Shown piece by piece: positions 9,845 through 31,373 of a stretch of 64,000 bases of DNA. Source of the stretch: a virus; IMG/VR virus record IMGVR_UViG_3300028008_000005, positions 1 through 64,000 of that record; one strand, 5' to 3'. The position numbers were made by a program, and so were the translations under genes. Position 1 is the stretch's first letter. Every line of letters begins with the position of its first letter. The notes beneath the pieces were generated by a model. That model did not search any database. It had not been told where the DNA came from and saw nothing but the letters and a program-made list of their open reading frames with translations.

Positions 9845-10253
9845 TAATATTAGTGAAGTTGTTGATGACTGGACACCAGGATCAATGCTTGAAGTAACAC
9901 TGAACGAACCAGATGATTTCCTAAAGGTACGTGAGACACTAACCCGTATTGGTGTAGCATCTCGTAAAGATCGCAAATTGTATCAATCTTGTCATATACT
10001 ACACAAGCAAGGTAGATACTTTATTACGCACTTTAAGGAACTATTTCTTCTTGACGCTAAGCCGTCTAACCTAACGGTAAACGATATCGAACGCCGTAAT
10101 ACCATTGCTACGCTTCTATCAGATTGGGGTTTAGTTAGTATGGTAAGCTCTGAGAAACTACAAGTCGCACCTCTAAGACAGATTAAAGTTATATCTCACC
10201 AAGATAAAGCGAATTGGGAACTTTGTCCCAAATATAATATCGGGAACAGTTAA
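9834..10253 (+). CDS. regA: Translational repressor RegA
   Basis: DDFLKVRETLTRIGVAS, LYQSCHILHKQGRYFI.HFKELF, W.L.PKYNIG. Confidence 0.95.
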   Translation: MENNNISEVVDDWTPGSMLEVTLNEPDDFLKVRETLTRIGVASRKDRKLYQSCHILHKQGRYFITHFKELFLLDAKPSNLTVNDIERRNTIATLLSDWGLVSMVSSEKLQVAPLRQIKVISHQDKANWELCPKYNIGNS

Positions 10254-10259
10254 TCCCGG

Positions 10260-10267
10260 TATAAATA
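10260..10267 (+). promoter_or_regulatory. T4-type late promoter TATAAATA upstream of hsp20
   Basis: Exact gp55 consensus in the intergenic region. Confidence 0.7.
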
Positions 10268-10269
10268 AG

Positions 10270-10340
10270 TAATGAGATGCGGAATGGTCCGGTCTCATTA
10301 TACTACTAACCTTGCTATAGAATAGGAGGTCATTCACATG
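10270..10340 (+). promoter_or_regulatory. ROSE-like RNA thermometer in the hsp20 5' UTR
   Basis: Hairpin 1 TAATGAGA/TCTCATTA (10270-10300); hairpin 2 CCTTGCTAT-AGA-ATAGGAGG pairs UUGCU (bulged G) with the Shine-Dalgarno. Confidence 0.65.
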
Positions 10341-10811
10341 ACACTACAGCACTTTCCCACAATGGGACCATCTTTTATCGGATTCGATCGATTAATTAAC
10401 CAACTCGAAAGATCCGGTAACTATAAAGATACATATCCACCCCACAACTTAATTCGTAAAAGCGAAGATGAATTTTCAATCGAGCTTGCAGTAGCGGGAT
10501 TTAGTTCCAGTGATATTGATATCCAAGTAGCTAATGGGGTATTAACTATATCTTCAGACTCACAAAAAACTGTGAGTAGCCTAGACAATCAGCCAGACTA
10601 TATCCACAAAGGTATATCGAATAAGCAGTTTCGTCGAAGCTTTAATTTAGCTGAATATATAGAAGTAAAGCAAGCTGGATATCAAGACGGTATTCTGACG
10701 GTAGATTTAATCAGGGTAATACCTGAAGAAAAGAAGCCTAAGAAAATCCCCATTGATACCTACGTAAGTCTTGCGAACTCTGCAGCAGCGGAGTTACTAA
10801 CTGAGAGTTAA
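10338..10811 (+). CDS. Small heat shock protein (Hsp20/IbpA family)
   Basis: FIGFD, YPPHN, IELAVAGF, YIHKGIS.KQF.RSF.L, DGILTVDL...PEEKKPKKI. Confidence 0.93.
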   Translation: MTLQHFPTMGPSFIGFDRLINQLERSGNYKDTYPPHNLIRKSEDEFSIELAVAGFSSSDIDIQVANGVLTISSDSQKTVSSLDNQPDYIHKGISNKQFRRSFNLAEYIEVKQAGYQDGILTVDLIRVIPEEKKPKKIPIDTYVSLANSAAAELLTES

Positions 10812-10817
10812 TATATT

Positions 10818-11141
10818 ATGAGCAAAAAACCCCGGTATCGCTTTCCCAATCATCCGCAAGGATCAATTGCAGAAAAGATTAAGAGAAGGCGTTTGCAGAT
10901 ACTAATTCACTCGTGTATATATTATGTGCTAGATGATAATATTATTGCTGATGATACATTTGACACATGGAGTAAAGAATTAGTAAAACTAATGAAAGAA
11001 AACCCAGACGCATACTCCGATCGGTTTGATAAGGAATTCAAGGATTGGGATGGCGCTACCGGGTACGATTTACGACTAAGAGACCCGTGGGTAATAAGTA
11101 CTGCCCAATATATACTAAACCTAGAGAGAAATAAAAAATGA
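10818..11141 (+). CDS. Stand-alone protein resembling domain Ia of NAD+-dependent DNA ligase
   Basis: HSCIYYVLDDNIIADDTFDTWSKELVKL resembles the LigA Ia pattern H..LYY..D.P.I.D.EYD.L..EL..L; no KxDG motif. Confidence 0.6.
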   Translation: MSKKPRYRFPNHPQGSIAEKIKRRRLQILIHSCIYYVLDDNIIADDTFDTWSKELVKLMKENPDAYSDRFDKEFKDWDGATGYDLRLRDPWVISTAQYILNLERNKK

Positions 11142-11422
11142 ATGATGTGAAAGTTATACGATTGTTTTCAGGCGAAGAAGTAATCTGTTTTGGAAAAGAA
11201 GTTGATGGAGGTTGGTCAATAGAAAAGCCTGGTATGCTAGTTCCAACAGAAAAGGGAGTTGGTATTATGGGTATGATGCCCTATACTACAATAGAGGAAG
11301 AAACTACTTTTATTAAAGATTCAATGATCGGCTTTGTAACAAACCCCGTATCAGGCCTTGAGGAACAGTTCCGATCGATTAATCAAACTATTATTGCCCC
11401 CGAGAAAAAGATATTATTATAG
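11138..11422 (+). CDS. Conserved hypothetical protein (Sm-like fold likely)
   Basis: VKVIRLFSGEEVI...MPY pattern of the small gene often preceding 43 in T4-like phages. Confidence 0.6.
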   Translation: MNDVKVIRLFSGEEVICFGKEVDGGWSIEKPGMLVPTEKGVGIMGMMPYTTIEEETTFIKDSMIGFVTNPVSGLEEQFRSINQTIIAPEKKILL

Positions 11423-11481
11423 TTTACATCTCCTTAGAATTGTGGTATAATAGTATATATTATTAAGAATGGAGATACACT

Positions 11482-14032: not shown

Positions 14033-14452
14033 ATGACAACAGAATGGGTACAAGATATTAATGATATGCACCGTAAGTATGGTGTACACGGATGGGTAAG
14101 CAAGAAGCTTGTTACTAAAGACAAAGAATCCCTTCGTAAGTTTCTGGAATTTCGAATTAACTTCCTAGTAGAAGAACTACAAGAAACCCAGAAAGCTTTC
14201 TCAGAGGGTGATTCAGAAGAAGTTGTAGATGGGCTTATTGACCTATGCGTTGTAGCTATAGGCACACTTGACGCCTTCGGGATCGATGCTGATAAAGCTT
14301 GGAATAAAGTTCATTGTGCTAATATGAACAAACTCATCGGTATTAAGGAAAGCAGACCTAACCCGCTAGGACTTCCAGATCTTATTAAGCCCGATGGTTG
14401 GAAAGCACCAGACCATAAAGATAATCACGGATATTTAAAAGAAACCTTTTAA
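14033..14452 (+). CDS. MazG/HisE-like all-alpha NTP pyrophosphohydrolase
   Basis: EEL.E...EEVVDGLIDL..VA.GT, VH.ANM.K, DLIKPDGW.APDH. Confidence 0.8.
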   Translation: MTTEWVQDINDMHRKYGVHGWVSKKLVTKDKESLRKFLEFRINFLVEELQETQKAFSEGDSEEVVDGLIDLCVVAIGTLDAFGIDADKAWNKVHCANMNKLIGIKESRPNPLGLPDLIKPDGWKAPDHKDNHGYLKETF

Positions 14453-15384: not shown

Positions 15385-15848
15385 TGAAAGACTTTAATAT
15401 AAGAGATATTGATCCCGAATTATTAAGAAGTAGAGCAATTGCAGAAGGTAATAAGATCTACCAAGGAAGTACTCGCGGTAATAGAGATTTGCAAGAGGTT
15501 CTTACCACCTGCATGCACGGCCAAGCTGCAGAGATTTTCTTAATGAACCAGGGGTTTATTGACGACGATCGGGAATATAAAGATCTATTTGAACCTATCC
15601 GCCTAGGTGGGAATTCTATAGAGGTAAAGGTAACCTCTTTTGAAAACTATATTCCCTTTGTATTAAAGCGATGTGCATATAAGATACAATACAAAAACAT
15701 AAACCACCCTAAAAGAGTTTATCTTTTTATAAACGATAAAAAAAGTCCAACCTATTTCTTTAACGGAATATACGATTGGAACGATAGGGATTTACAATTC
15801 TTTAAAAATATGGTACAATATAACATTGTTACAGAGGAATCCTCATGA
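15384..15848 (+). CDS. Hypothetical protein, possible PD-(D/E)XK nuclease
   Basis: GQAAE...YKDL...IEVKVT spacing. Confidence 0.45.
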   Translation: MKDFNIRDIDPELLRSRAIAEGNKIYQGSTRGNRDLQEVLTTCMHGQAAEIFLMNQGFIDDDREYKDLFEPIRLGGNSIEVKVTSFENYIPFVLKRCAYKIQYKNINHPKRVYLFINDKKSPTYFFNGIYDWNDRDLQFFKNMVQYNIVTEESS

Positions 15849-16201
15849 AAGAATCGCTTAAGGTACTACAAGAATGTGCCGAAATCCAAGCTAAGAAGTC
15901 TAACGACTACCAGAACCCAAACTCACGTATAGTTCAAGCCGACTACTATCCCCGTGGTGTATCGACTATTCTCGATATTATTCACGGCAAGGTGCTTCGG
16001 CTACGATCTGTTACTGAAGCCATGGAATTGGATCCTTCATATACTCCCAATTACGAATCCGTAGAAGATTCGGCTAAAGACCTAATTAACTATGCATCCT
16101 TTCTAGTTGCTTATTCTAGGGGTCAAATCCCTGGTCAAGACCCCTCCAATGACTTCCTAAATCGTCCGCTACAGCAAGTTAACACATCTCCTGAAGATTA
16201 G
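15845..16201 (+). CDS. Nucleotide modification-associated domain protein (DUF1599/Nmad1-like)
   Basis: KKSNDY...K.LRL.S...ESVEDS..DLINYA pattern. Confidence 0.7.
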   Translation: MKESLKVLQECAEIQAKKSNDYQNPNSRIVQADYYPRGVSTILDIIHGKVLRLRSVTEAMELDPSYTPNYESVEDSAKDLINYASFLVAYSRGQIPGQDPSNDFLNRPLQQVNTSPED

Positions 16202-17500: not shown

Positions 17501-17595
17501 AAATAAAAATAGAAGTTGAAATAGATACCACAGAGGATCGTGACGAGATATTATATTTAATTGAACTGCTTAAAGATATTAAAGAGGCACAATAA
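17497..17595 (+). CDS. Small hypothetical protein (32 aa)
   Basis: Read manually: MKIKIEVEIDTTEDRDEILYLIELLKDIKEAQ; overlaps neighbours by ATGA/TAATG. Confidence 0.55.
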   Translation: MKIKIEVEIDTTEDRDEILYLIELLKDIKEAQ

Positions 17596-17777
17596 TGAAT
17601 TATCCAACATTCCAAAAGGTTATTGACGACCTAGACAAGTCTTATAAGGCGAATCAAGGATTTGCTAATAGATGGAATCCTTACGATCTTGGTAAGTTTA
17701 CTGTAACTTGGGAAGATGCTGGTTTATCCTATGAAGGTACTATACAGATATGCACGAAGCTTTCGTTAAAAGATTAA
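17595..17777 (+). CDS. Hypothetical protein
   Basis: GAGG RBS; operon packing. Confidence 0.5.
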   Translation: MNYPTFQKVIDDLDKSYKANQGFANRWNPYDLGKFTVTWEDAGLSYEGTIQICTKLSLKD

Positions 17778-17959
17778 TTAATAATTTCGATGGTAAGCGT
17801 TATATTGCTTTAACGATTGCCTATCAAGAATTCGATCTACCAGATACTTTCTGGAAGTCGATAATTCAGGATGACTTTGGAATGGCTGCAACAATCCTTC
17901 TAAATAAGTATCCTGGATATAAAGCAAACTTTATAGCTGAAACATTATGGGAAGGCTAA
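17750..17959 (+). CDS. Hypothetical protein
   Basis: ORF fills the gap before the next promoter; weak RBS. Confidence 0.45.
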   Translation: MHEAFVKRLINNFDGKRYIALTIAYQEFDLPDTFWKSIIQDDFGMAATILLNKYPGYKANFIAETLWEG

Positions 17960-18054
17960 AAAGTTGTTTACATTATACCAAAAGTATGGTATAATAAACT
18001 TATCTTACAAAATAAAGTAAGATTTTTAATATTAATATATAAGGTAAAAATGAT

Positions 18055-18333
18055 ATGAGTAAAGTAACAAAAGAGTCAAAAGTACTAGCAGCACTTCAAG
18101 CGAATACAGCTAAGGGCATAACAGCCGCTCAGATGACTTCACGCTTCGGTGTAGCAAATCCTACTGCAACAGTCACTGCCCTTCGACAGAAAGGCTTTGC
18201 AATCTACGCTAATAGCCGTACTAACAAAGGTGGAGAGACACGTACTTTCTATCGATTAGGTACACCATCAAAAGCAGTGGTAGCTGCTGGCTATAAAGCT
18301 CGCGCAGCAGGCGCTTTTTTCTCTGTTAGTTAA
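18055..18333 (+). CDS. Small basic winged-helix/HTH DNA-binding protein
   Basis: KVLAALQ...ITAAQMTSRFGVANPTATVTALRQKGFAIY...TFYRLG; own promoter and terminator. Confidence 0.7.
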   Translation: MSKVTKESKVLAALQANTAKGITAAQMTSRFGVANPTATVTALRQKGFAIYANSRTNKGGETRTFYRLGTPSKAVVAAGYKARAAGAFFSVS

Positions 18334-18346
18334 AAGCTAAACTCGG

Positions 18347-18380
18347 AGGGGGTTGGGGCTTATGCTCCAATCCCTTTTTT
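18347..18380 (+). terminator. Rho-independent terminator
   Basis: GGGGGTTGGGGC-TTAT-GCTCCAATCCC stem followed by T6. Confidence 0.75.
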
Positions 18381-18397
18381 GGTGTAAGGAGATTATT

Positions 18398-19132
18398 ATG
18401 AATAGAGTATCCGGGCGTACATTAAACGAAGGCTTAAGATCATTAAGATTACTCCTTCTTAACCAAGGATATGAAATAGCTACAGAAAGATGGCAAGGTA
18501 AAGAACAACCTCCTACCTTCTTAGAAATACTACACGCTGATCTTGTTGCTCCTATGTATATTTCACAGGGCCAAGCATCTGAAGGATGTCGTGCTACACA
18601 GCCTTGGGCAGATATACATTTCGAAGAACGCGTATCTGGTATACCCCACAATCCCCCACCGTCACATAAAATGTGGCTTAAAGATACAGAAGATTACCTA
18701 CAAGATAAAGCCTTCTCGCATTCCTATCCTGAGCGTATGTGGTGTAATACAGATACGAATGGTATTCGATTTAAGTACGGTAATCTTAACACAGCAGTAG
18801 AGCTACTCAAGAAAGAACCTAACACTCGACAGTGTTATATCCCTATGTGGTTTCCCGAAGATATTACAGCAGCAGCTCAAGGTGAACGAGTACCTTGTAC
18901 CCTTGGATGGCACTTCATGCTTCGTGGAGAAGAATTACATTGCTCTTATCATATGCGCTCTTGCGATGTAGCACGCCATTTACACAATGACTTATTCTTT
19001 GCAAACGCTTTATGTTTATGGCTTATAGATAAGTCTGGTATCCAAGCAAAGCCAGGCTATCTTCACTTCTCAGCCACTTCATTACATTGCTTTGCCAACG
19101 ATCGTTACGCATTGGAGAAACTAACTAAATAA
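18398..19132 (+). CDS. Thymidylate-synthase-fold pyrimidine-modifying enzyme (dCMP hydroxymethylase-like)
   Basis: TRQ, catalytic PC (RVPCT), MRSCDVARHLHNDL with Asp at the TS Asn177-equivalent position, SLH.F; ATG 18398 after AAGGAG. Confidence 0.8.
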   Translation: MNRVSGRTLNEGLRSLRLLLLNQGYEIATERWQGKEQPPTFLEILHADLVAPMYISQGQASEGCRATQPWADIHFEERVSGIPHNPPPSHKMWLKDTEDYLQDKAFSHSYPERMWCNTDTNGIRFKYGNLNTAVELLKKEPNTRQCYIPMWFPEDITAAAQGERVPCTLGWHFMLRGEELHCSYHMRSCDVARHLHNDLFFANALCLWLIDKSGIQAKPGYLHFSATSLHCFANDRYALEKLTK

Positions 19133-20448
19133 TGTGCGGATTTATTGCTTCCCAAAATTCAGACGTAGACCTAAAAAAACTTATAAACAATATGGCTTAT
19201 CGAGGCATCCTTGGTTATAAGGGTTATCACGAAGAACCATTCTATAAGATAAAACTTTGTCATTATAGCTTACCCTTTGTTAATTTAGATCCAGATGTTG
19301 CTATTCAACCTGTTACGGTTAGCAATCGTAAATCATTATTTGTAGGGGAAATCTTTAACTACAAAGAGCTAGGTGCTGAAACAGACGGTATATGCATATC
19401 AGATGCATTCCACAACACTCTTAATTGGGTAGAAGAATTCCATAAGTTCGATGGCTTTTGGTCATTCGTTACAGAATATGAAGGTAGTCTAATTGCTATT
19501 ACTGATTACCTAGCTCAAAAGCCAATATATTATCGTACAGATATCGAAGCCTTTGCTTCTGAAATCGATGTACTAAAAGAATTTGGCCCTGTAACAAGAG
19601 ACGAGCTATTTCACTCTAACACTATGAAATGGGGATATGATCCTACAGGGTTAACACCTTGGAATGAGATTAAGCAGATCCCACCAGGATGCTACTACCA
19701 CAAAGGTAACATCCATTCGTATTGGGATTGGTCAAAGGTTACCCGATCTGATTCTCTAGTAGATGATCTTCGTAAAGCTACTGAACTCCGGTTAGGTGGT
19801 GAACGCGAGGTGTCTATACTACTATCTGGTGGATTAGATTCGTCTATAGTCTACGGTCTAATCAAAGAACTTGGCCGTGATGTTAAAGCTATTCATGTAG
19901 AGAATCACGAAAAAGACTTTGCATCCCTTATGACCAAGGACCTTATTGAGGTAACACTCGATTCTGTATCAGATGAAGATTCAGTTAGAATACACCAAAG
20001 CCCAGTAGATCTTGGTTCGGTTAAGCCTCAGTTAGCTATGGGTAAGAAGCTTAAACAATTAGGCTTTAACGCTGTTATGACAGGCGATGGTGCAGACGAA
20101 CTTTTTGGTGGTTACAGACGAGCAGAACAATATGATTCGCAGTATTCAGACGTATTCTGCGAACTTCCCTACTATCACCTTCCTAAGCTAGATCGAACAA
20201 TGATGTATTATACAATCGAGCTTAGAACTCCCTTCCTCGCTCCTAGCGTTATTAAGCATGCTCTTGAATTACCATATGAAATGCGTATGGGTAAAAAGCA
20301 AAAGCTTATCGACGAATTCGCTTACTTACTCCCAAAAGAAATTTTAGAAAGACAGAAACATCCGCTTAAAACAGATTCAATTCGTAATGACCCTATGAAG
20401 CAAAGGACGATTAACAACGAAATATGGAGTAAATTATATGGAAGATAA
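19132..20448 (+). CDS. Asparagine synthetase B-like glutamine amidotransferase
   Basis: N-terminal MCG (Ntn Cys), GEIFNY, PP-loop LLSGGLDSS, TGDGADELFGGY, KLDR..M...ELRTPFL. Confidence 0.9.
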   Translation: MCGFIASQNSDVDLKKLINNMAYRGILGYKGYHEEPFYKIKLCHYSLPFVNLDPDVAIQPVTVSNRKSLFVGEIFNYKELGAETDGICISDAFHNTLNWVEEFHKFDGFWSFVTEYEGSLIAITDYLAQKPIYYRTDIEAFASEIDVLKEFGPVTRDELFHSNTMKWGYDPTGLTPWNEIKQIPPGCYYHKGNIHSYWDWSKVTRSDSLVDDLRKATELRLGGEREVSILLSGGLDSSIVYGLIKELGRDVKAIHVENHEKDFASLMTKDLIEVTLDSVSDEDSVRIHQSPVDLGSVKPQLAMGKKLKQLGFNAVMTGDGADELFGGYRRAEQYDSQYSDVFCELPYYHLPKLDRTMMYYTIELRTPFLAPSVIKHALELPYEMRMGKKQKLIDEFAYLLPKEILERQKHPLKTDSIRNDPMKQRTINNEIWSKLYGR

Positions 20449-20878
20449 ACTATGGGATAAGCGCTATCTTAATTTAGCTAAAGAGGTAGCACTGTGGTCA
20501 AAAGATCCTTCTTCAAAGATTGGATCTGTTGCTATTGGCGGTCAAGGCCAAGTCCTTGCTCAGGGTTACAACGGCTTTCCTCGTGGTGTAGACGATAGCG
20601 TAGAAAGATATAGCGATAGAGAAACAAAGTACAAGTATGTAGTTCATTCTGAAATGAATGTTATATACAATGCTTCATATAATGGGGTATCACTCAAAGG
20701 ATCAACCTTATATGTTTATGGCCTACCAGTATGCTCAGAATGTGCTAAAGGTATAATACAAACTGGAATTTCTCGTATTGTAATGGGTAGTGAATCGTTA
20801 CCTGAGAGATGGATGGAATCGTTTGAAACAACTAAGATCCTATTTGATGAAGCTGGCGTCAAATGGGAATTCATATAA
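20438..20878 (+). CDS. cd: dCMP deaminase
   Basis: SKDP..KIG, GYNGFPRG, HSEMN, PVCSEC zinc motifs. Confidence 0.92.
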   Translation: MEDKLWDKRYLNLAKEVALWSKDPSSKIGSVAIGGQGQVLAQGYNGFPRGVDDSVERYSDRETKYKYVVHSEMNVIYNASYNGVSLKGSTLYVYGLPVCSECAKGIIQTGISRIVMGSESLPERWMESFETTKILFDEAGVKWEFI

Positions 20879-22350: not shown

Positions 22351-23674
22351 TGATGACTTTACTCGTAAGGTTATCCCCTTCTTACGAAAAGAATACTTCG
22401 AAGGTTCACACCGAGTAGTATTTGATAAGATTCTTGAGTTTGTTGGTAAGTATAACAAGCTGCCAACTCAAGAATCCCTAAATGTTGATTTAGATGAATC
22501 CTTCCTTAACGATCAGCAGTTCTCTGATGCTGCTGACGTTATTCGGGAAATCTCTTCCCCTGCTGAAAACCCAGACGCTGATTGGCTACTAGAACATACA
22601 GAAAAGTGGTGTCAGGATCGTGCAATACATCTTGCTATTATGAAGTCTATCTCTATCATCGACGGCAAAGACCCAGATATGACTAAGAATGCTTTGCCAG
22701 AGTTACTCTCAGAAGCTTTATCTGTAGGCTTTGATACAAACGTTGGTCACGACTATCTTGCCAATGGCGAAGAAAGATATGAATTCTATCATCAGGTAGA
22801 AGATAAGATCCCATTTGACCTTGATCGATTCAACGAAATAACCAAAGGTGGCTTACCTAAGAAAACTCTTAATATTGCTCTTGCCGGTACTGGCGTTGGT
22901 AAGTCTTTGTTCATGTGTCACGTTGCTGGTTCAGTCTTGGCACAGGGTAAAAACGCTCTTTATATTACTATGGAAATGGCAGAAGAAAAGATTGCAGAAC
23001 GTATCGATGCTAATCTAATGAATGTAGCTATTGACCAGCTTGGTAATCTTTCCAAAGATATGTTTACATCCAAGGTAAAAAATATAGGGGATAGGTATCA
23101 GGGTCAACTACTGATCAAGGAATACCCAACTGGCAATGCTCATGTTGGTCACTTTCGTGCACTGCTTAAAGAGCTCAAGCTTAAGAAAAACTTTATGCCA
23201 GATATAATCTTTATTGACTATTTGAATATCTGCGCATCATCTCGTATGAAAGGTATGGGCGGTGCAATTAACTCTTATTCCTATATCAAAGCAATTGCAG
23301 AAGAGATTCGTGGTCTTGCCGTAGAGTTTAACGTTCCCATTATGTCAGCTACACAAACTACACGATCCGGTTTTGCCAACTCCGACGTGGGGCTTGAAGA
23401 TACCTCGGAATCATTTGGTCTACCTGCAACAGCAGACTTAATGTTTGCACTTATCTCAAACGAAGAGCTAGACAATCTTGGTCAGATAATGGTCAAGCAA
23501 TTAAAAAATCGATATAACGATCCTGGTACAAATAAGCGATTTGTTATCGGTGTAGATAGAAGTAAGATGAAGCTATTTGACGTAGAGCAGTCAGCACAAC
23601 TTGGATTAACAGATACTGGCGTAACTACAAATACTAATTATGGTGCTAAAAAATACGAAGGATTTAAGGTATGA
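22298..23674 (+). CDS. 41: Replicative DNA helicase (gp41, DnaB-like)
   Basis: AGTGVGKSL, YITMEMAEE, IKEYPT, IDYLNIC, SESFGLPATAD, KQLKNRY. Confidence 0.96.
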   Translation: MEKSPLIQTVILRNLITNDDFTRKVIPFLRKEYFEGSHRVVFDKILEFVGKYNKLPTQESLNVDLDESFLNDQQFSDAADVIREISSPAENPDADWLLEHTEKWCQDRAIHLAIMKSISIIDGKDPDMTKNALPELLSEALSVGFDTNVGHDYLANGEERYEFYHQVEDKIPFDLDRFNEITKGGLPKKTLNIALAGTGVGKSLFMCHVAGSVLAQGKNALYITMEMAEEKIAERIDANLMNVAIDQLGNLSKDMFTSKVKNIGDRYQGQLLIKEYPTGNAHVGHFRALLKELKLKKNFMPDIIFIDYLNICASSRMKGMGGAINSYSYIKAIAEEIRGLAVEFNVPIMSATQTTRSGFANSDVGLEDTSESFGLPATADLMFALISNEELDNLGQIMVKQLKNRYNDPGTNKRFVIGVDRSKMKLFDVEQSAQLGLTDTGVTTNTNYGAKKYEGFKV

Positions 23675-24354
23675 TGGTAAAGCTATTAAGCTACTCTAAA
23701 GCTACTGGAGAATACGAGTTCGGGGACAAGACCGAATTACAAGATATTATAGCATACTGTGCTAGAGTATCTAACCCTGCTAATCAGAGCAATACAAAGA
23801 CAAATGAAAAGCTTCTTAGTTATCTTGCTAAGCACAAGCATTGGTCACCCTTTGAAATGGTATCAGTGTGTATGGAAATTGAAACAACTCGAGATATAGC
23901 TCGGCAAATACTTCGTCATAGATCGTTTAGCTTTCAGGAGTTTAGCCAGAGATATGCAGATCCAACAGAAGATCTAGACTTTGTATTGCGAGAAGCTCGA
24001 TTACAGGATACTAAGAATCGACAAAACTCTATAGAGATCGATGAACTCTCAGGTCCTGAGGGACAGCAACTACAAAAAGATTGGGCAGCAATTCAGTATC
24101 AGGTTATTCACGAAGCAAAGATGGCTTATCGATGGGCTATTCAGAATGGTATTGCTAAAGAGCAAGCCCGTGCAGTACTGCCTGAAGGTAATACAGTCTC
24201 TCGACTATACATGAATGGTACTCTTCGTTCTTGGCTTCATTATATAGAGTTAAGGTCGGAAAACGGGACACAGAAAGAGCATATTGAAGTAGCTAAAGAA
24301 TGTGGTAATCAAATAGCAAAGGTATTCCCTTCAATTTTAGAGATGGTAAACTAA
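23671..24354 (+). CDS. thyX: FAD-dependent thymidylate synthase ThyX
   Basis: HWSPFE, RQILRHRSFSFQEFSQRY, KEQARAVLP, TQKEH. Confidence 0.95.
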   Translation: MMVKLLSYSKATGEYEFGDKTELQDIIAYCARVSNPANQSNTKTNEKLLSYLAKHKHWSPFEMVSVCMEIETTRDIARQILRHRSFSFQEFSQRYADPTEDLDFVLREARLQDTKNRQNSIEIDELSGPEGQQLQKDWAAIQYQVIHEAKMAYRWAIQNGIAKEQARAVLPEGNTVSRLYMNGTLRSWLHYIELRSENGTQKEHIEVAKECGNQIAKVFPSILEMVN

Positions 24355-25051: not shown

Positions 25052-25281
25052 TGTATTTAGAACCGTGGATGCTTGGTGGCTTATTCGTTTGGTGGCTCGC
25101 TTCTGTTTATGCGATATCAAAAAAAGAGAGGGAAAAATCATTTGCCGTAGGATTAAGTCTTGGTGTTAAATACACCATAACAGGATATGTGAAAGACAGG
25201 ACTATTAGCTATAAGAGAGTTTGTGCGTCTCTTATAGATGACTTAAATTCAGGAGCTGTACAAATAGAGGACTATGAATAG
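25051..25281 (+). CDS. Small membrane protein
   Basis: N-terminal hydrophobic segment. Confidence 0.55.
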   Translation: MYLEPWMLGGLFVWWLASVYAISKKEREKSFAVGLSLGVKYTITGYVKDRTISYKRVCASLIDDLNSGAVQIEDYE

Positions 25282-25751
25282 TGTATGAATATAAAGCAAA
25301 AGTAATAAAGGTAATAGATGGAGACACCGCAGATGTAGACATTGATCTTGGCTTTGATATAATACTGTCTAACCAAAGAATTCGTTTTATGGGTGTTGAT
25401 ACACCAGAATCCAGGACTTCCGATAAAGAAGAAAAGGTATATGGCCTATTAGCGAAGGACTTCGTTCAATCCCATCTTGTAAAGGGTGATTATGTTACTC
25501 TGCAGACATTTAAGGACGATCGGGGTAAATTCGGTAGGGTTCTAGGCGATTTTAAAGTATACGACACCAATAATGATCGATGGACTACTCTTTGTAGGCT
25601 GCTAATTGAAAATAACTTAGGTGTAGCATATCACGGTCAAAGCAAAGACGATATTAAAGAAGAGCACCTTAGAAACAGACAGATTCTTTCTGAAAAAGTA
25701 AATCTTAGGGTTAAAATTGAAAAAGTAAATCTTAGGGTTAAAATTCCGTAA
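25281..25751 (+). CDS. Thermonuclease (SNase-like) protein
   Basis: KVIDGDT, RIRFMGVDTPE, GKFGRVLG. Confidence 0.85.
   Translation: MYEYKAKVIKVIDGDTADVDIDLGFDIILSNQRIRFMGVDTPESRTSDKEEKVYGLLAKDFVQSHLVKGDYVTLQTFKDDRGKFGRVLGDFKVYDTNNDRWTTLCRLLIENNLGVAYHGQSKDDIKEEHLRNRQILSEKVNLRVKIEKVNLRVKIP
25691..25744. repeat. Perfect 27 bp tandem duplication
   Basis: TGAAAAAGTAAATCTTAGGGTTAAAAT x2, encoding EKVNLRVKI twice. Confidence 0.9.
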
Positions 25752-26846: not shown

Positions 26847-28217
26847 GTGAAAAAATTTAAAAGCTTTGTCGTTGAAGACATGAGACCGCTTACCCCTGCT
26901 GAATTTCAAAAGCCGAATTCCCAAACTGGTGAGCCAAGACTAGAGCTACTTGTTAAAGCAATTATATCAGGTACTCCTCTCCCAACGGTTGATAAAAAAA
27001 CCGTATTTCTAGCTAATGATCCTGAAAACCTTAAAGCTGTAGATCAGTTTAAAAAAGAAACAAAGCCCAAACCGATGTCTCTCAAAACAAAAGAAGGGGA
27101 TAGCATATCTTCTTCTAAACTCGGTAAGTCTGCTTATTTCGGTGGTGGCAAGGGTGCTGGCGGTGGAACCGATAATACTGCAGTAGTTGAGTCTGCTCAA
27201 TGCCTGTGGCTTGCTGCTATGCTTAAGCACGGGGCTAATCAGCCAATCGAATATTACACCCCTGAGGTTCTTAAGTCTTTTATGGGCAAGGTTTCAGTGG
27301 GTAAGACATCATTTGATGATATGATCTCGATTGATCCAACGTGGGCTTACTCGTCATACTACTCTGCTAAAAAATTAATAGCAGAAAGATATGTTAATAG
27401 TAATCACATCTTTCATCGCGATTCAAAGGAAATGAAATTTATATACGATGCAAAGAAGACAGCATTAAAAAATAGTGGACTCGGCTCTATGTCAGACGAC
27501 AAGTGGAATCCAGGAGATATCTGGGCCATAGAGTCTGGTGTAAACCTATCAAAGGAATTAGATATTAGTTCTATCTCTTCTTTAAATAGTTCATTGCTCA
27601 AACTCTTTACGTCTCGTAAGGTTATTGGTATCTCTCTTAAGCAAGTTAAAAAAGATCCTGCAAAGATCAAAGAGTACAACTTCGAATCTGCCCCTTCATC
27701 TCACAAATTTATTTCTGCTAAGACTAAATCTAACCGTGGAGACTTCTTTTCCAACAAAGGCGGATTCATAGAATTTAGCTCTGGCCTAATGGACATACGA
27801 CCTAATAGCTATATGGGTACAAATAAGATTGAGATCCGCGGAACTAATTCTCGTGGCGGTGGAGCTGGATGGCAAACTGTAGTATATTCTGCTAAAAAAT
27901 ATATGAATGTAAAGGTTCGTACCCACGCAGAGACCAAAAAACTGGCTAATAAGATATTAAAGGGTGATAAAAGAGCAATACAAATATTCTTTCTTAGATC
28001 CAAGATCTGCGATTCGTCCTTGACCTATGACTATTTTGCTGAGCAAATAAAAGAAAAAGATGGTGGCTGGATTACAGCTAAGATTGGTGCAGTAGATGTA
28101 TGTAGTGTTCTTATTCAAAAGAAAGGCACAAAGTCTGACGCCTTTATTAATTCTATTGTAAACTATGCTGCATCAACTTCCGAAGAATCGTCAGTATTCA
28201 TAAAGGTATCCCAATAA
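26847..28217 (+). CDS. Late protein, putative PD-(D/E)XK nuclease with capsid-targeting-like N-terminus
   Basis: N-terminus MKKFKSFVVE; ESAQC, KWNPGDIW...IGISLKQ nuclease-like motifs. Confidence 0.6.
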   Translation: MKKFKSFVVEDMRPLTPAEFQKPNSQTGEPRLELLVKAIISGTPLPTVDKKTVFLANDPENLKAVDQFKKETKPKPMSLKTKEGDSISSSKLGKSAYFGGGKGAGGGTDNTAVVESAQCLWLAAMLKHGANQPIEYYTPEVLKSFMGKVSVGKTSFDDMISIDPTWAYSSYYSAKKLIAERYVNSNHIFHRDSKEMKFIYDAKKTALKNSGLGSMSDDKWNPGDIWAIESGVNLSKELDISSISSLNSSLLKLFTSRKVIGISLKQVKKDPAKIKEYNFESAPSSHKFISAKTKSNRGDFFSNKGGFIEFSSGLMDIRPNSYMGTNKIEIRGTNSRGGGAGWQTVVYSAKKYMNVKVRTHAETKKLANKILKGDKRAIQIFFLRSKICDSSLTYDYFAEQIKEKDGGWITAKIGAVDVCSVLIQKKGTKSDAFINSIVNYAASTSEESSVFIKVSQ

Positions 28218-29455
28218 TGATTTCGTTTGGAACGTATATTACCGAACAAAAAAACACTCACATGACCCACCTTGAAGATCAGGTGATATATGGTGGAGTT
28301 AAAGGAGCGCGTGATGCTATCCTTGCTCTTCGTGCACTGAGAGATATGCTAGCTGGTAATGCTAGCAGTGGTGTAGATGTTACTGTTAAATGGGATGGTG
28401 CTCCAGCTGTGTTTGCTGGTATTGATCCCTCTGATGGTCAATTCTTTGTTGCCAAAAAGGGTATCTTTAATAAGAATCCTATGGTCTATAAAAGCCACGA
28501 GGATATCGACGCTGATACTTCTGGTGACCTAAATGCTAAGCTTAAGATTGCTTTTACTGAAATGAGCAAGCTAGGTATTACAGACGTTGTACAGGGAGAC
28601 ATTATGTTCTCTGGTAACGACGTTAAAAATGAAACAATCGACGGTAAGAAGTATATTACCTTCCACCCAAATACTATACTATATGCTATTAACGCTGATT
28701 CGGAAGAAGCGAAAGTAATTAAGAAAGCTAAGATTGGTATTGTATTCCATACTTCTTACTCCGGTGGATCCTTTGAAACAATGACAGCATCATATGGTGT
28801 TGATGTATCTAAGTTTAATAAAGTTTCTACAATCTGGGCACAAGACGCTGAGCTTCGTGACCTTTCTGGCAATGCTACTCTTACAAAGAAAGATACAGCA
28901 GAAGTTACAGCAGCATTATCTAATTCTGGTAAGATATTTCAAAAGATTGCTGGGTCTACACTCAAAGAGATAGAGACTAATCAGGAATTTGCTAGGATAA
29001 TTGAGACGTATAATAATAGCTTCCTACGAAGTAAAAAGCCTATAGGTAATACTGCTAAGCACGTAGAGGGGCTTATCCAGTATGTTAGGGATAAGTTTCA
29101 GAAAGAAGCTGATAAGCGTAGTTCAGACAAGGGTAAGAAAGCCCAATATGCCAAAAGAGACGATATTCTTAAGTTTTTTGATCCCAAGAATAAAAAGAAT
29201 CTAAAATTAATCTTCGATTTGCAACAATCTATCGCACAAGCTAAGCTAATCATTATAAATAAGCTTGATAAGTTAAATAATATAAATACATTTGTTAAAA
29301 CAAAAAATGGGTTTAAAGTAACCGGCCACGAAGGCTTTGTTGCTATAGACCGCATTGGCGGTGGAGCTGTTAAGCTAGTAGATCGTTTAGAATTCTCTAC
29401 TAACAACTTCGATCCAAATATTATAAAAGGCTGGGACTCACCGTCTCGAGGCTAA
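28217..29455 (+). CDS. Conserved T4-like protein with ligase/covalent nucleotidyltransferase-like motifs
   Basis: N-terminus MISFGTYITE; TVKWDGAP (motif I KxDG), QGDIMF, HEGFV (motif IV), VKLV (motif V). Confidence 0.6.
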   Translation: MISFGTYITEQKNTHMTHLEDQVIYGGVKGARDAILALRALRDMLAGNASSGVDVTVKWDGAPAVFAGIDPSDGQFFVAKKGIFNKNPMVYKSHEDIDADTSGDLNAKLKIAFTEMSKLGITDVVQGDIMFSGNDVKNETIDGKKYITFHPNTILYAINADSEEAKVIKKAKIGIVFHTSYSGGSFETMTASYGVDVSKFNKVSTIWAQDAELRDLSGNATLTKKDTAEVTAALSNSGKIFQKIAGSTLKEIETNQEFARIIETYNNSFLRSKKPIGNTAKHVEGLIQYVRDKFQKEADKRSSDKGKKAQYAKRDDILKFFDPKNKKNLKLIFDLQQSIAQAKLIIINKLDKLNNINTFVKTKNGFKVTGHEGFVAIDRIGGGAVKLVDRLEFSTNNFDPNIIKGWDSPSRG

Positions 29456-29847
29456 TGGGAAAATATATGTACTCCTTTAAAGACTACCTGACAGTAGACG
29501 AGGACGTTGATGTTGGCGAAGCGCTAACGAATATGCAACGCCAAAAAGCAAAGCAAACCTTCCGTAAGAATAAAGCTAAAATTGCCTTAGGAAAAAAGAA
29601 AGCAGCTAAAAAAGTAGCTTCTCCTGAGCAACTAAAGAAAAGAGCAGAAAAAGCAGCTCGCAATATACTCATTAAGAAAATAACAAAAGACAAAGATAAA
29701 TCTGATCTTTCTTTTGCTCAAAGAACTAATATAGAAAAACAGCTAGAAAAAAAGAAAGGGGCTATTAAAAAAATAGCTAAAAAACTTCTCCCGCAGCTAA
29801 GAAAAGATGACAGAGAAAAGAAAGCTGCAGCAAGAGGGAAGAGCTAA
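29455..29847 (+). CDS. Highly basic late protein
   Basis: (M)YSFKDYL N-terminus; Lys-rich body. Confidence 0.65.
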   Translation: MGKYMYSFKDYLTVDEDVDVGEALTNMQRQKAKQTFRKNKAKIALGKKKAAKKVASPEQLKKRAEKAARNILIKKITKDKDKSDLSFAQRTNIEKQLEKKKGAIKKIAKKLLPQLRKDDREKKAAARGKS

Positions 29848-31373
29848 TGTTTAAGTCTTTTTCAGACTACATTGTAGAAGAAACAAAAGAAGTAGTTTTT
29901 ACATTCGGTCGGTTTAATCCTCCAACAACAGGCCACGAAAAGTTACTAGCTAAAGTAGCTTCTATTGCGTCAGGCAATAACTACCGAGTCTATGCTTCCC
30001 AATCCTCCGATCCCAAAAAGAATCCCCTCGATTATACAACTAAAATTAAGACCATGCGCAAAATGTTTCCAAAGCATGGCCGAAATATTATTCTAGATAA
30101 GAATGTTAAGAATGCCCTAGAGGTATTAACCCAGCTATACGATCAAGGGTTTACTAAGGTAACAATGGTTGTTGGGTCTGATCGAGTAAACGAGTTCTCG
30201 GCATTAGCCAATAAGTATAATGGTGCAAAGCTTCGTCATGGATTTTATAACTTTGAAGGTGGGGTAAACGTTGTATCTGCAGGCGAAAGAGATCCTGATG
30301 CAGAAGGTGTCGAAGGTATGTCAGCCTCTAAGATGCGTCAAGCAGCAGTAGATAATGACTTTACTTCTTTCTCTAAAGGCTTACCTACCTCTTTTAAAGG
30401 CGGTAAAGATCTATTTAATACCATTCGTAAAGGAATGGGTATTAAAGAAGCAGCAGATTATCAAAGGCATATTCAACTAGAAACCGTTTCAGAAGAGCGC
30501 GAAGCATACGTTAAAGGCGATCTTTTTGCAGTTGGTGATTCAGTTATTATTACTGAATCAGATGAGGTTGGCGAAATAACAGTCCTTGGCGCTAACTACG
30601 TTATTGTAGAAATGGCAAATGGCAAAAAACTACGCAAATGGTTATCTTCTGTAGACCTTATTGAATCAGCCCAGACGGATATAGATGAAGACTGGTTTAC
30701 TACCTTAATCGGCAAATACACAAATGCTAAAGGTTATAAGATAGCATCAGAGATCCTCCAAAAAATTGTCGACCGCAAGAAAAAAGAAGGGCCACTTCGA
30801 CACGATATTAACTGGTACGCTGCTAAGGTAGCTGATCAGGTTAGCGGTGTAGATGCTCGTACTCTTGGTAAGATGGTTACTGAAAAGACTCGTAAGGTTA
30901 TCCAAGATCCTGATATCGAAGATCGGGAGGGGTCACAGACTAAGAGATTCTTTACAGGACTAAAAAAATCTACAAAGGTTGATCGTGACAGGGAATTCCA
31001 AAAAAGAAAAGATCTAGATGACGATGATCCAGCTGGATATAAACCAATTCCTGGAGATGCCAAATCCAAGACTAAACCTTCTCAGCATACCAAAAAGTTT
31101 AAAGATATGTTTGGAGAAGATAGCATTGAAGAAAAAAGCTCTGTAGAAACTACCCTACGTAAAAAAGCAGACCAGTCTGGTATGCCATATGGTATTCTTA
31201 AGCAAGTATACAATCGTGGCTTAGCAGCATGGAAGGTAGGACATAGACCAGGAGCAACCCCAGCACAATGGGGAATGGCTCGAGTAAACGCATTTGCAAC
31301 CAAAGGGGAAAAGACTTGGGGCAAGTATGATTCAGATCTAGCAGATAAAGTGAGGCAAGGAAAAAGCAAATGA
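29847..31373 (+). CDS. Cytidylyltransferase/NMNAT-like (HxGH) nucleotidyltransferase with C-terminal accessory domains
   Basis: FTFGRFNPPTTGHEKL, VVGSDR, VSAGERDPD, MSASKMR; N-terminus MFKSFSDYIVEE. Confidence 0.8.
   Translation: MFKSFSDYIVEETKEVVFTFGRFNPPTTGHEKLLAKVASIASGNNYRVYASQSSDPKKNPLDYTTKIKTMRKMFPKHGRNIILDKNVKNALEVLTQLYDQGFTKVTMVVGSDRVNEFSALANKYNGAKLRHGFYNFEGGVNVVSAGERDPDAEGVEGMSASKMRQAAVDNDFTSFSKGLPTSFKGGKDLFNTIRKGMGIKEAADYQRHIQLETVSEEREAYVKGDLFAVGDSVIITESDEVGEITVLGANYVIVEMANGKKLRKWLSSVDLIESAQTDIDEDWFTTLIGKYTNAKGYKIASEILQKIVDRKKKEGPLRHDINWYAAKVADQVSGVDARTLGKMVTEKTRKVIQDPDIEDREGSQTKRFFTGLKKSTKVDRDREFQKRKDLDDDDPAGYKPIPGDAKSKTKPSQHTKKFKDMFGEDSIEEKSSVETTLRKKADQSGMPYGILKQVYNRGLAAWKVGHRPGATPAQWGMARVNAFATKGEKTWGKYDSDLADKVRQGKSK

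Follow-up and report, generated by a model that had tools for sequence, protein, structure and literature searches.

This study concerns a stretch of 64,000 nucleotides (the window), positions 1 to 64,000 of the 114.7-kb IMG/VR record IMGVR_UViG_3300028008_000005 (CheckV completeness 64%), which originates from an uncultured marine T4-like myovirus. At positions 18398-20878 it carries three translationally coupled genes, encoding a homolog of thymidylate synthase (TS), an enzyme resembling asparagine synthetase B (AsnB) and a zinc deaminase of the deoxycytidine monophosphate (dCMP) deaminase family. The interpretation we favor, with confidence slightly above even, is that this cassette replaces cytosine with a hypermodified cytosine, for which the TS homolog makes a handle that the AsnB-like enzyme aminates or amidates. 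The product of the set is probably an undescribed nitrogen-bearing cytosine in the phage DNA. In its widest form, the proposal is that abundant marine T4-like phages and several unrelated groups of phages replace cytosine with an undescribed base, which could for example be 5-aminomethylcytosine or a C5 carboxamide, by means of a TS-fold dCMP enzyme and an AsnB-like amidotransferase that would adenylate the C5 side chain and install nitrogen; this wider statement is tentative, and we give it a little under even weight. A core of a TS homolog with Asp at the position of E. coli ThyA Asn177 (TS(Asp177)), a deaminase and a MazG/PRA-PH pyrophosphatase is already known, as is an AsnB homolog (CmoY) in phage cytosine hypermodification, and the new part is an amidotransferase linked to a TS homolog. 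Our literature search turned up no account of a TS homolog paired with an AsnB-like amidotransferase, or of phage DNA modification by such a pair, and no natural aminomethyl-, carbamoylmethyl- or carboxamido-cytosine.

The TS and AsnB-like genes and their linkage

The TS-like open reading frame (ORF; 18398-19132, + strand, 244 aa) matches Pfam Thymidylat_synt at 35.7 bits against a cut-off of 24.3, and is classed as thymidylate synthase in PHROG. Its ATG start at 18398 is favored over an upstream TTG at 18353 by an identical 244-aa database protein (P0121). The AsnB-like ORF (19132-20448, + strand, 438 aa; Pfam Asn_synthase, 94.7 bits, plus GATase_7) begins within the junction aaaTAATGtgc, where the last A of the TAA stop is also the A of the ATG, and overlaps by 11 nucleotides the deaminase ORF (20438-20878, + strand, 146 aa; Pfam dCMP_cyt_deam_1, 64.3 bits; phrog_174), both junctions having been read directly. 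The deaminase translation carries HSEMN and CSECA, which fit the zinc motifs H-x-E and P-C-x-x-C of the dCMP deaminase family. A gene for the flavin-dependent thymidylate synthase ThyX follows at 23671-24354 (+ strand; Pfam Thy1, 148 bits, covered at profile positions 8-191 of 191; phrog_85, 239 bits) and is also present in the loci of relatives. A preliminary description of this DNA had reported the three coupled genes and the separate thyX, all of which were confirmed by the ORFs, the Pfam matches and direct reading. Since ThyX is present, the supply of thymidine monophosphate (dTMP) is independent of the TS homolog, as had been argued earlier.

The segment RSCDVARHLHND of the TS homolog aligns without gaps to RS(A/C)DVFLG(L/V)PFN of solved thymidylate synthases (HMMER), and its Asp falls on Asn177 of E. 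coli ThyA both in this alignment and in a MAFFT alignment with E. coli ThyA and T4 gp42, which bears out the residue assignment made initially. The same residue is found in 66 of 68 TS genes adjoining AsnB-like genes in the viral loci retrieved; in this set, position 169 is Asp throughout (68/68) and position 143 is Arg in 62. When the XP12-type enzyme was included in the alignment, Arg126, Cys146, Arg166, Ser167, Asp169 and His207 were seen to be kept, and the substitutions relative to E. coli ThyA were Asn177 to Asp, Leu143 to Arg and His147 to Thr; the protein ends about 14 residues past the conserved His207 position. An AlphaFold2 model (predicted local distance difference test score, pLDDT, 87.9) matched TS-fold structures in Foldseek at E-values of 1e-14, the best match being the CMP hydroxymethylase MilA (template modeling score, TM, 0.75) and T4 gp42 ranking 47th. 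The protein belongs to the ThyA-fold thymidylate synthase/pyrimidine hydroxymethylase superfamily.

Published work describes Asn177Asp as the switch to dCMP and takes it as diagnostic of dCMP use (PMC13326640, PMC8670742). Because Asp occupies this position, the TS homolog is predicted to be a dCMP-type enzyme and should act on dCMP, so that the earlier reading of the residue as dCMP-selecting is supported by published criteria and by its conservation across the family. Lacking Asn177, Leu143, His147 and the folate-closing C-terminal segment, the homolog does not appear to be a dTMP-forming ThyA proper. Asp169Asn is diagnostic of 5-hydroxy-dCMP synthases (PMC13326640), and with Asp retained at 169 the protein is not expected to be an enzyme of that kind (RB69 gp48 or DLP3 gp80 type). 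Asp or Glu at position 143 goes with hydroxymethylation, and a polar or acidic residue there correlates with hydroxymethyl products (PMC13326640); judged by this position the homolog would not be a canonical T4-type hydroxymethylase, although Arg is polar and water access therefore plausible.

The AsnB-like enzyme consists of an N-terminal nucleophile (Ntn)-type amidotransferase domain and a PP-loop adenylating domain. Its AlphaFold2 model (pLDDT 94.6) is closest to E. coli AsnB (1ct9, TM 0.79), with further matches to human ASNS, beta-lactam synthetase, TsnB9 and carbapenam synthetase. Residues were compared between 64 members of its clade, E. coli AsnB and longer viral AsnB-like proteins. 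Kept in the clade are Cys1, Gly75, Glu76, Asp98, the PP-loop SGGLDSS, Asp351, Glu352, Tyr357, Lys429 and Lys449, and of these Cys1, the PP-loop, Asp351, Glu352, Lys429 and Lys449 are invariant. Equally invariant (64/64) are the replacements Thr322 to Asp, Arg324 to Gly, Ala325 to Ser, Glu348 to Asp and Asp384 to His, and Lys376 is Val or Ile in all 64. The longer viral proteins retain Thr or Ser at 322, Arg324 and Asp384, but not Lys376, and have Glu348 in half of the cases only. We take Thr322, Arg324, Glu348, Lys376 and Asp384 to be aspartate or beta-aspartyl-AMP contacts and catalytic residues of the AsnB synthetase site. A KWGY...T insert in the inter-domain region is specific to the clade, and in the window's protein Arg49 is replaced by Ser and Asn74 by Val.

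Relatives of this protein, 430-470 aa in length, number in the thousands in metagenomes and are encoded on 553 IMG/VR stretches. Searches with tblastn of 50,697 phage records, using the whole protein and its C-terminal half, returned no meaningful relative, and a search of 185,579 bacterial and archaeal species, each represented by one genome, gave no match above 29% identity; the clade appears to be virus-only. These observations bear on one explanation of the gene, namely that it is an auxiliary metabolic gene supplying the infected cell with asparagine. Such a role would fit the AsnB fold with its Cys1 and PP-loop, the name asparagine synthase given by annotation pipelines and the frequent listing of asparagine synthase among viral auxiliary metabolic genes, but Thr322, Arg324, Lys376 and Asp384 are replaced in 64/64 clade members, whereas the longer viral proteins keep all but Lys376 (with Ser as an alternative at 322). 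Arg49 and Asn74 are moreover lost in the subclade of the window's protein, cellular counterparts above 29% identity are absent, and the clade occurs in strict association with TS(Asp177) genes. We regard the auxiliary-gene explanation as highly improbable, and the enzyme itself as very unlikely to be an asparagine synthetase, because the presumed aspartate-binding residues are replaced and the clade is virus-only and TS-linked; the preliminary suggestion that its product would be something other than asparagine is supported to this extent.

The TS-like, AsnB-like and deaminase genes occur together in each of the 37 close loci (57-83% identity) with enough sequence on both sides, in some of them with inserts between the TS-like and AsnB-like genes. 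Taken by itself, this linkage could reflect conserved synteny of one lineage. Wider context was compared in 80 loci found with a profile of the AsnB-like family, among which the same TS family lies at most 7 kb from the AsnB-like gene in differing contexts. These include 36-kb contigs with the order dUTPase_2 - TS - AsnB, where the TS homolog is the sole partner, 40-kb phages with the order AsnB - dUTPase_2 - C5-methyltransferase (C5-MTase) homolog(s) - TS - deaminase, and several other backbones. The clade travels with the TS family in at least five different genome contexts. Being kept in 37/37 loci and recurrent in unrelated phage backbones, the arrangement is not due to chance; the survey of the neighborhood that the preliminary description had called for thus came out in favor of a conserved association.

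Several further observations were made in these loci. C5-MTase homologs with an unusual motif IV, GHPECG, stand beside the AsnB-like gene in phages of about 40 kb, at L040:7314-8507, L041:8806-10149 and 10182-11468, and L057:8344-10650. They have Lys (TGKxMP) at the position of the carboxyl-binding Arg350 of the DNA carboxymethyltransferase CmoX, where ordinary enzymes have Asn. Engineered M.MpeI N374K uses carboxy-S-adenosylmethionine (carboxy-SAM, Cx-SAM) (PMC12783734), and by analogy the L040, L041 and L057 proteins may represent a second, natural type of carboxymethyltransferase. A 290-394-aa N-methyltransferase-like protein (DPTAGTGT ... GTPYP) accompanies the TS-like and AsnB-like genes in several lineages, at L087:4164-5348, L089:5528-6655 and L110:8307-9185. 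In one lineage it is fused to the C5-MTase homolog, forming residues 488-765 of the protein encoded at L057:8344-10650; its function may be N-methylation of the modified base. The C5-MTase homologs of L087, L089 and L110 had been considered as CmoX-like and were rejected, since they match only the C-terminal N-methyltransferase-like domain of the L057 fusion. Ten neighbors of the AsnB-like gene tested in one jumbo-type contig (L061) had no Pfam match.

The linkage also bears on an explanation without any hypermodification, in which the TS homolog and the deaminase form an alternative route to dTMP (from dCMP through 5-methyl-dCMP/dCTP to dTMP/dTTP) and the AsnB-like gene is a passenger. Formation of dTTP by a deaminase acting on 5-methyl-dCTP is documented (bioRxiv 10.1101/2024.12.05.627091), and the interval between the polymerase and uvsX genes, in which the cassette lies, is variable, as seen in Phage C48C1. 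ThyX, however, makes a second dTMP route unnecessary, the genes are translationally coupled, and the AsnB-like clade accompanies this TS family through unrelated backbones and differing gene orders, which is unlike the behavior of a passenger. We consider this explanation improbable.

A possible pathway and competing chemistries

From the observed gene identities, residues, coupling and co-occurrence we infer a scheme of four steps, covering the handle, the product and the level (nucleotide or DNA) at which the AsnB-like enzyme acts. In the first, dCTP would be converted to dCMP by the MazG-type (PRA-PH) nucleoside-triphosphate pyrophosphatase encoded at 14033-14452 (+ strand; Pfam PRA-PH, 42.4 bits), whose gene is conserved in T4-like relatives, a few kb ahead of the TS gene, and which is a candidate dCTPase excluding canonical cytosine from the DNA. 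The conserved Cys of the TS homolog, with Asp at 177, would then attack C6 of dCMP, and a one-carbon unit from methylene-tetrahydrofolate would be placed on C5, 5-hydroxymethyl-dCMP being the likeliest handle. In the third step the AsnB-like enzyme, acting on the nucleotide or on the base in DNA, would use ATP at its PP-loop site to adenylate an oxygen of the C5 substituent, and ammonia, delivered by the Cys1 amidotransferase domain or free in solution, would displace AMP to leave a cytosine bearing an amine or an amide. The deaminase and ThyX would meanwhile sustain dTTP and drain canonical dC nucleotides; a deaminase of this kind may use dCMP or 5-substituted dCMP/dCTP (bioRxiv 10.1101/2024.12.05.627091). 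A variant in which ammonia attacks the exocyclic methylene of the TS intermediate directly was set aside, as the intact PP-loop site would then have no function. Complex prediction for the AsnB-like and TS-like proteins gave a score of 0.00, which counts neither way.

A number of points weigh against this scheme. The lineage is without any isolate, and the proposed pathway is read from its genes. Enzymes of the AsnB family adenylate carboxylates, and a TS-type enzyme working with methylene-folate yields a methyl or hydroxymethyl group, not a carboxylate; we know of no AsnB-family enzyme that adenylates the oxygen of a hydroxymethyl group. Given this mismatch between carboxylate chemistry and the folate-dependent TS product, either the AsnB-like family took a new acceptor or the handle differs from what the TS fold leads one to expect. 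The product of the TS homolog is itself uncertain, because residue 143 is Arg and not the Asp or Glu of proven hydroxymethylases. Nitrogen delivery is a further difficulty. In the T4-like subclade to which the window's AsnB-like protein belongs (18/18), Arg49 is replaced by Ser, Ala or Ile and Asn74 by Val or Ser, positions that serve in AsnB as the glutamine carboxylate contact and in the oxyanion hole, respectively; outside this subclade most members keep Arg49 and 30 of 46 keep Asn74. Glutamine use, as opposed to that of free ammonia, is made less certain by this loss, hydrolysis may be weak or altered, and the subclade may have changed its nitrogen donor. The glutamine-derived ammonia of the preliminary proposal is accordingly less certain than was supposed there: Cys1, Gly75, Glu76 and Asp98 are kept, but Arg49 and Asn74 are lost in the phage's own subclade.

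The genomic record adds its own counterweights. A large share of the synteny evidence stems from a single viral lineage, and some of the 40-kb cassettes include C5-MTase homologs, which would be redundant if every cytosine were already substituted at C5. In jumbo-type genomes the TS and AsnB-like genes are not adjacent, although their joint presence there also counts for the linkage: in a complete 348.6-kb genome and a second record, a 262-aa TS homolog of the same family (RVPC, RSCDYIRHFRDD) lies about 100 kb from the AsnB-like gene. The complete genome (G007; L054, L128 and L130) was also seen to encode a canonical ThyA (273 bits), so that ThyA, TS(Asp177/Arg143) and the AsnB-like enzyme stand at three distant loci.

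In another reading, the AsnB-like enzyme does not act on the C5 substituent. The TS homolog, deaminase and MazG-type enzyme could make a known 5-methylcytosine (5mC) genome of the XP12/PaMx74 type or a 5-hydroxymethylcytosine (5hmC) genome, and the AsnB-like enzyme could aminate the C4 carbonyl of 5-substituted dUMP in the nucleotide pool, following the logic of GMP synthetase or CTP synthase and raising the supply of modified dC nucleotides. The combination of TS(Asp177), dCMP deaminase and PRA-PH in cis is indeed the published signature of phage DNA of the 5mC/5hmC type (PMC8670742; bioRxiv 10.1101/2024.12.05.627091), and several such TS homologs make 5-methyl-dCMP (bioRxiv 10.1101/2024.12.05.627091). 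The acceptor pocket of the AsnB-like enzyme, in addition, no longer has its amino-acid contacts, and His and Asp have appeared in it. Adenylation followed by amination of a ring carbonyl is known from PP-loop enzymes of other families, such as GuaA and TilS, but not from any member of the AsnB family. The reaction would also run counter to that of the adjacent deaminase, a dCMP-specific TS homolog would make it redundant, and the XP12-type TS has Asn143 and only about 30% identity to the window's family over half its length. Pool amination is, on this evidence, unlikely.

A carboxylate-based alternative is offered by the Cmo system of Synechococcus phage S-B43, in which CmoA makes carboxy-SAM and the C5-MTase homolog CmoX uses it to install 5-carboxymethylcytosine (5cxmC) in DNA (PMC12783734). 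CmoY of the same phage, an AsnB homolog consisting of the synthetase domain only, was shown experimentally to ligate glycine to 5cxmC in DNA with ATP, and CmoX-associated ligases that also carry a glutaminase domain form a large, so far uncharacterized cluster (A0A7T0Q3R0) and are predicted to use glutamine-derived ammonia (PMC12783734). The window's AsnB-like enzyme could accordingly be imagined as an amide ligase of the CmoY type, acting on an acid-bearing cytosine such as 5cxmC in DNA and forming a carboxamide such as 5-carbamoylmethylcytosine, the carboxyl group being supplied by an unrecognised enzyme or by the TS homolog. Remote homology of the AsnB-like family to S-B43 CmoY was detected by hhalign (probability 91.5%, E 9e-7), although the two are too distant for BLAST. 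In an IQ-TREE phylogeny of viral relatives rooted on E. coli AsnB, the glutaminase-bearing AsnB-like genes of loci L124 and L126, which are flanked by bona fide CmoX (SPPC, Gly-Arg) and CmoA, formed a pair (SH-like approximate likelihood ratio test, SH-aLRT, 100) sister to the 64-member TS-linked clade (SH-aLRT 100), with a joint support of 98. An acid-bearing substrate would agree with the known carboxylate chemistry of the AsnB family; the adjoining C5-MTase homologs of L040, L041 and L057, with their Lys at the CmoX Arg350 position, point the same way, and one may speculate that Arg143 of the TS homolog binds a carboxylate.

The comparison with these sisters, however, also counts against both readings. 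The TS-linked clade shares only 25-27% identity with the CmoX-linked proteins and differs from them at 7/7 comparable signature positions on the acceptor side, so that the CmoY analogy does not fix the substrate of the enzyme in the pathway we favor either. No match to PF00145 (C5-MTase) or CmoA was found in this phage's 64% complete record, nor in two complete relatives with terminal repeats (G001 and G002, 157 and 146.5 kb), the 36-kb and other contigs pair the AsnB-like gene with the TS homolog alone, and installation of a carboxyl group is not known from any TS-fold enzyme. Because the complete relatives are without C5-MTase and CmoA, the TS homolog must supply the handle as the sole C5-modifying enzyme. 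We judge a CmoY-type amide ligase in this phage to be fairly unlikely, and continue to prefer a TS-made handle aminated or amidated by the AsnB-like enzyme.

Neighboring genes, occurrence and significance

The replication genes of the window follow the T4 order: gp47/46-like, gp45, gp44 and DNA polymerase are succeeded by the MazG-type pyrophosphatase, and UvsX and gp41 lie downstream of the operon. A small conserved protein of 118 aa is encoded at 15845-16201 (+ strand) and resembles Nmad1/DUF1599 (E=0.009; 16.8 bits, under the cut-off of 25). In many relatives the TS gene is immediately preceded by this DUF1599-like small ORF, which weakly suggests a possible accessory gene. No match to the GT1 and GT2 families was found in the 114.7-kb record, and the initial remark that the window holds no glycosyltransferase is upheld for these families; a search with T4 beta-gt was uninformative, as its controls matched nothing either. 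Elsewhere in the window we noted a DUF6267 protein (28217-29455, 333 bits), a 508-aa protein with a weakly cytidylyltransferase-like N-terminus and DUF5824 (29847-31373), and a staphylococcal-nuclease-like protein (25281-25751) with a C-terminal direct repeat of nine residues, KVNLRVKIE / KVNLRVKIP.

Near-identical DNA is present in seawater runs from many studies, the runs listed coming from 18 studies in all, and contigs of three RNA libraries cover the operon, one contig of 2,749 nucleotides corresponding to 17507-20255. Such libraries can hold DNA and the contigs are unstranded, so that they are at most a weak hint of expression; nor can contigs reveal base modification.

Modified bases govern the survival of phage DNA in the face of restriction and CRISPR, and serve as tools for sequencing and DNA labeling. 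If the AsnB-like enzyme does aminate or amidate a TS-made handle, this would be a third kind of handle decoration beside the glycosylation and carbamoylation of 5hmC, in addition to amide ligation by CmoY. The reaction would be of a type new to the asparagine-synthetase family, would extend that family to a nucleobase substrate, and would open a new route to aminated DNA. It would also explain a virus-only protein that pipelines call asparagine synthase and that is perhaps counted as an auxiliary gene of nitrogen metabolism, in a cassette found in hundreds of viral contigs.

Comparison with known systems

The gene order of the window (polymerase - ... - TS homolog - AsnB-like - deaminase - uvsX - small ORF - gp41) can be laid beside that of T4 (43 - imm - 42 - beta-gt - segA - uvsX - 40 - 41), in which case the TS homolog is in the slot of gene 42 and the AsnB-like gene in that of beta-gt. 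Phage C48C1 (L215, OQ984149, 30186-45229), the closest sequenced relative (75% identity in UvsX), carries genes for a DNA methyltransferase, a nucleotide-sugar epimerase and a UDP-glucose dehydrogenase in the polymerase-uvsX interval instead of the TS, AsnB-like and deaminase genes. As different modification genes are held there, the interval behaves as a swappable DNA-modification slot. The glucosylated-5hmC pathway of T4 shares with the window a TS-fold enzyme that has Asp at position 177, and an overall logic of a dCTP-clearing pyrophosphatase, a deaminase, a handle maker and a handle decorator (gp56, Cd, gp42 and the alpha- and beta-glucosyltransferases in T4, where the gp1 kinase also takes part). 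The TS homolog is, however, only about 17% identical to gp42 in a structure-based comparison and has Arg, not Asp, at 143. The predicted decorator is an ATP-dependent amidotransferase rather than a glycosyltransferase, the pyrophosphatase is of the MazG type, and ThyX replaces Td.

The 5mC phages of the XP12/PaMx74 type and the MetaGPA contigs likewise combine an Asp177 TS, a dCMP-family deaminase and MazG/PRA-PH, but have no AsnB-like gene, and ThyX is additionally present in the window. Asn_synthase was not found in the part of the MetaGPA supplementary files that was accessible, where GATase_7 is given as 'depleted'. The XP12-type TS of Xoo-sp2 differs further from the window's family in its Asn143 and long C-terminal extension. 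MilA of mildiomycin biosynthesis, the best structural match of the TS homolog, is cytosine-specific and has Asp at 177 (PMC13326640), but it shares 18% identity, acts on a ribonucleotide, has Asp143 and belongs to bacterial secondary metabolism. E. coli AsnB has the same two-domain fold as the AsnB-like protein, with the Cys1, Gly75, Glu76, Asp98 and PP-loop noted above; the viral protein is 116 residues shorter, 19% identical, and altered at the acceptor site and at Arg49 and Asn74.

The nearest TS homologs among isolated phages (35-42% identity) are those of Mycobacterium phages FF47/Muddy, Streptomyces phage Zuko, Gordonia phages and Serratia phage Opt-155, all with Arg143 and Asp177 and with a deaminase gene adjacent. 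The siphovirus module of FF47/Muddy, Zuko and Opt-155 resembles the window in this pairing but has no AsnB-like gene, and a protein without a Pfam match (269-353 aa) is encoded upstream of the TS instead. The gene order in FF47 (L043), Zuko (L044), Opt-155 (L045) and MW202777 (L001) is tmpK - dUTPase_2/MazG - no-Pfam protein - TS - deaminase - PolA. By published criteria, this module predicts cytosine-modified DNA, with the no-Pfam protein in the slot of the decorating enzyme; we found no report on DNA modification in the FF47/Muddy, Zuko and Opt-155 phages.

The Cmo system is the closest in concept, in that an AsnB-family adenylating enzyme, here a predicted one with remote homology to CmoY, serves to decorate a C5-modified cytosine in phage DNA. 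The partner in the window is nevertheless a TS-fold nucleotide enzyme and not a DNA C5-methyltransferase homolog, CmoX and CmoA are missing, and S-B43 CmoY is without an amidotransferase domain and uses glycine. The window's system is not a member of the Cmo system, but would resemble it in directing an AsnB-type ligase to a modified cytosine.

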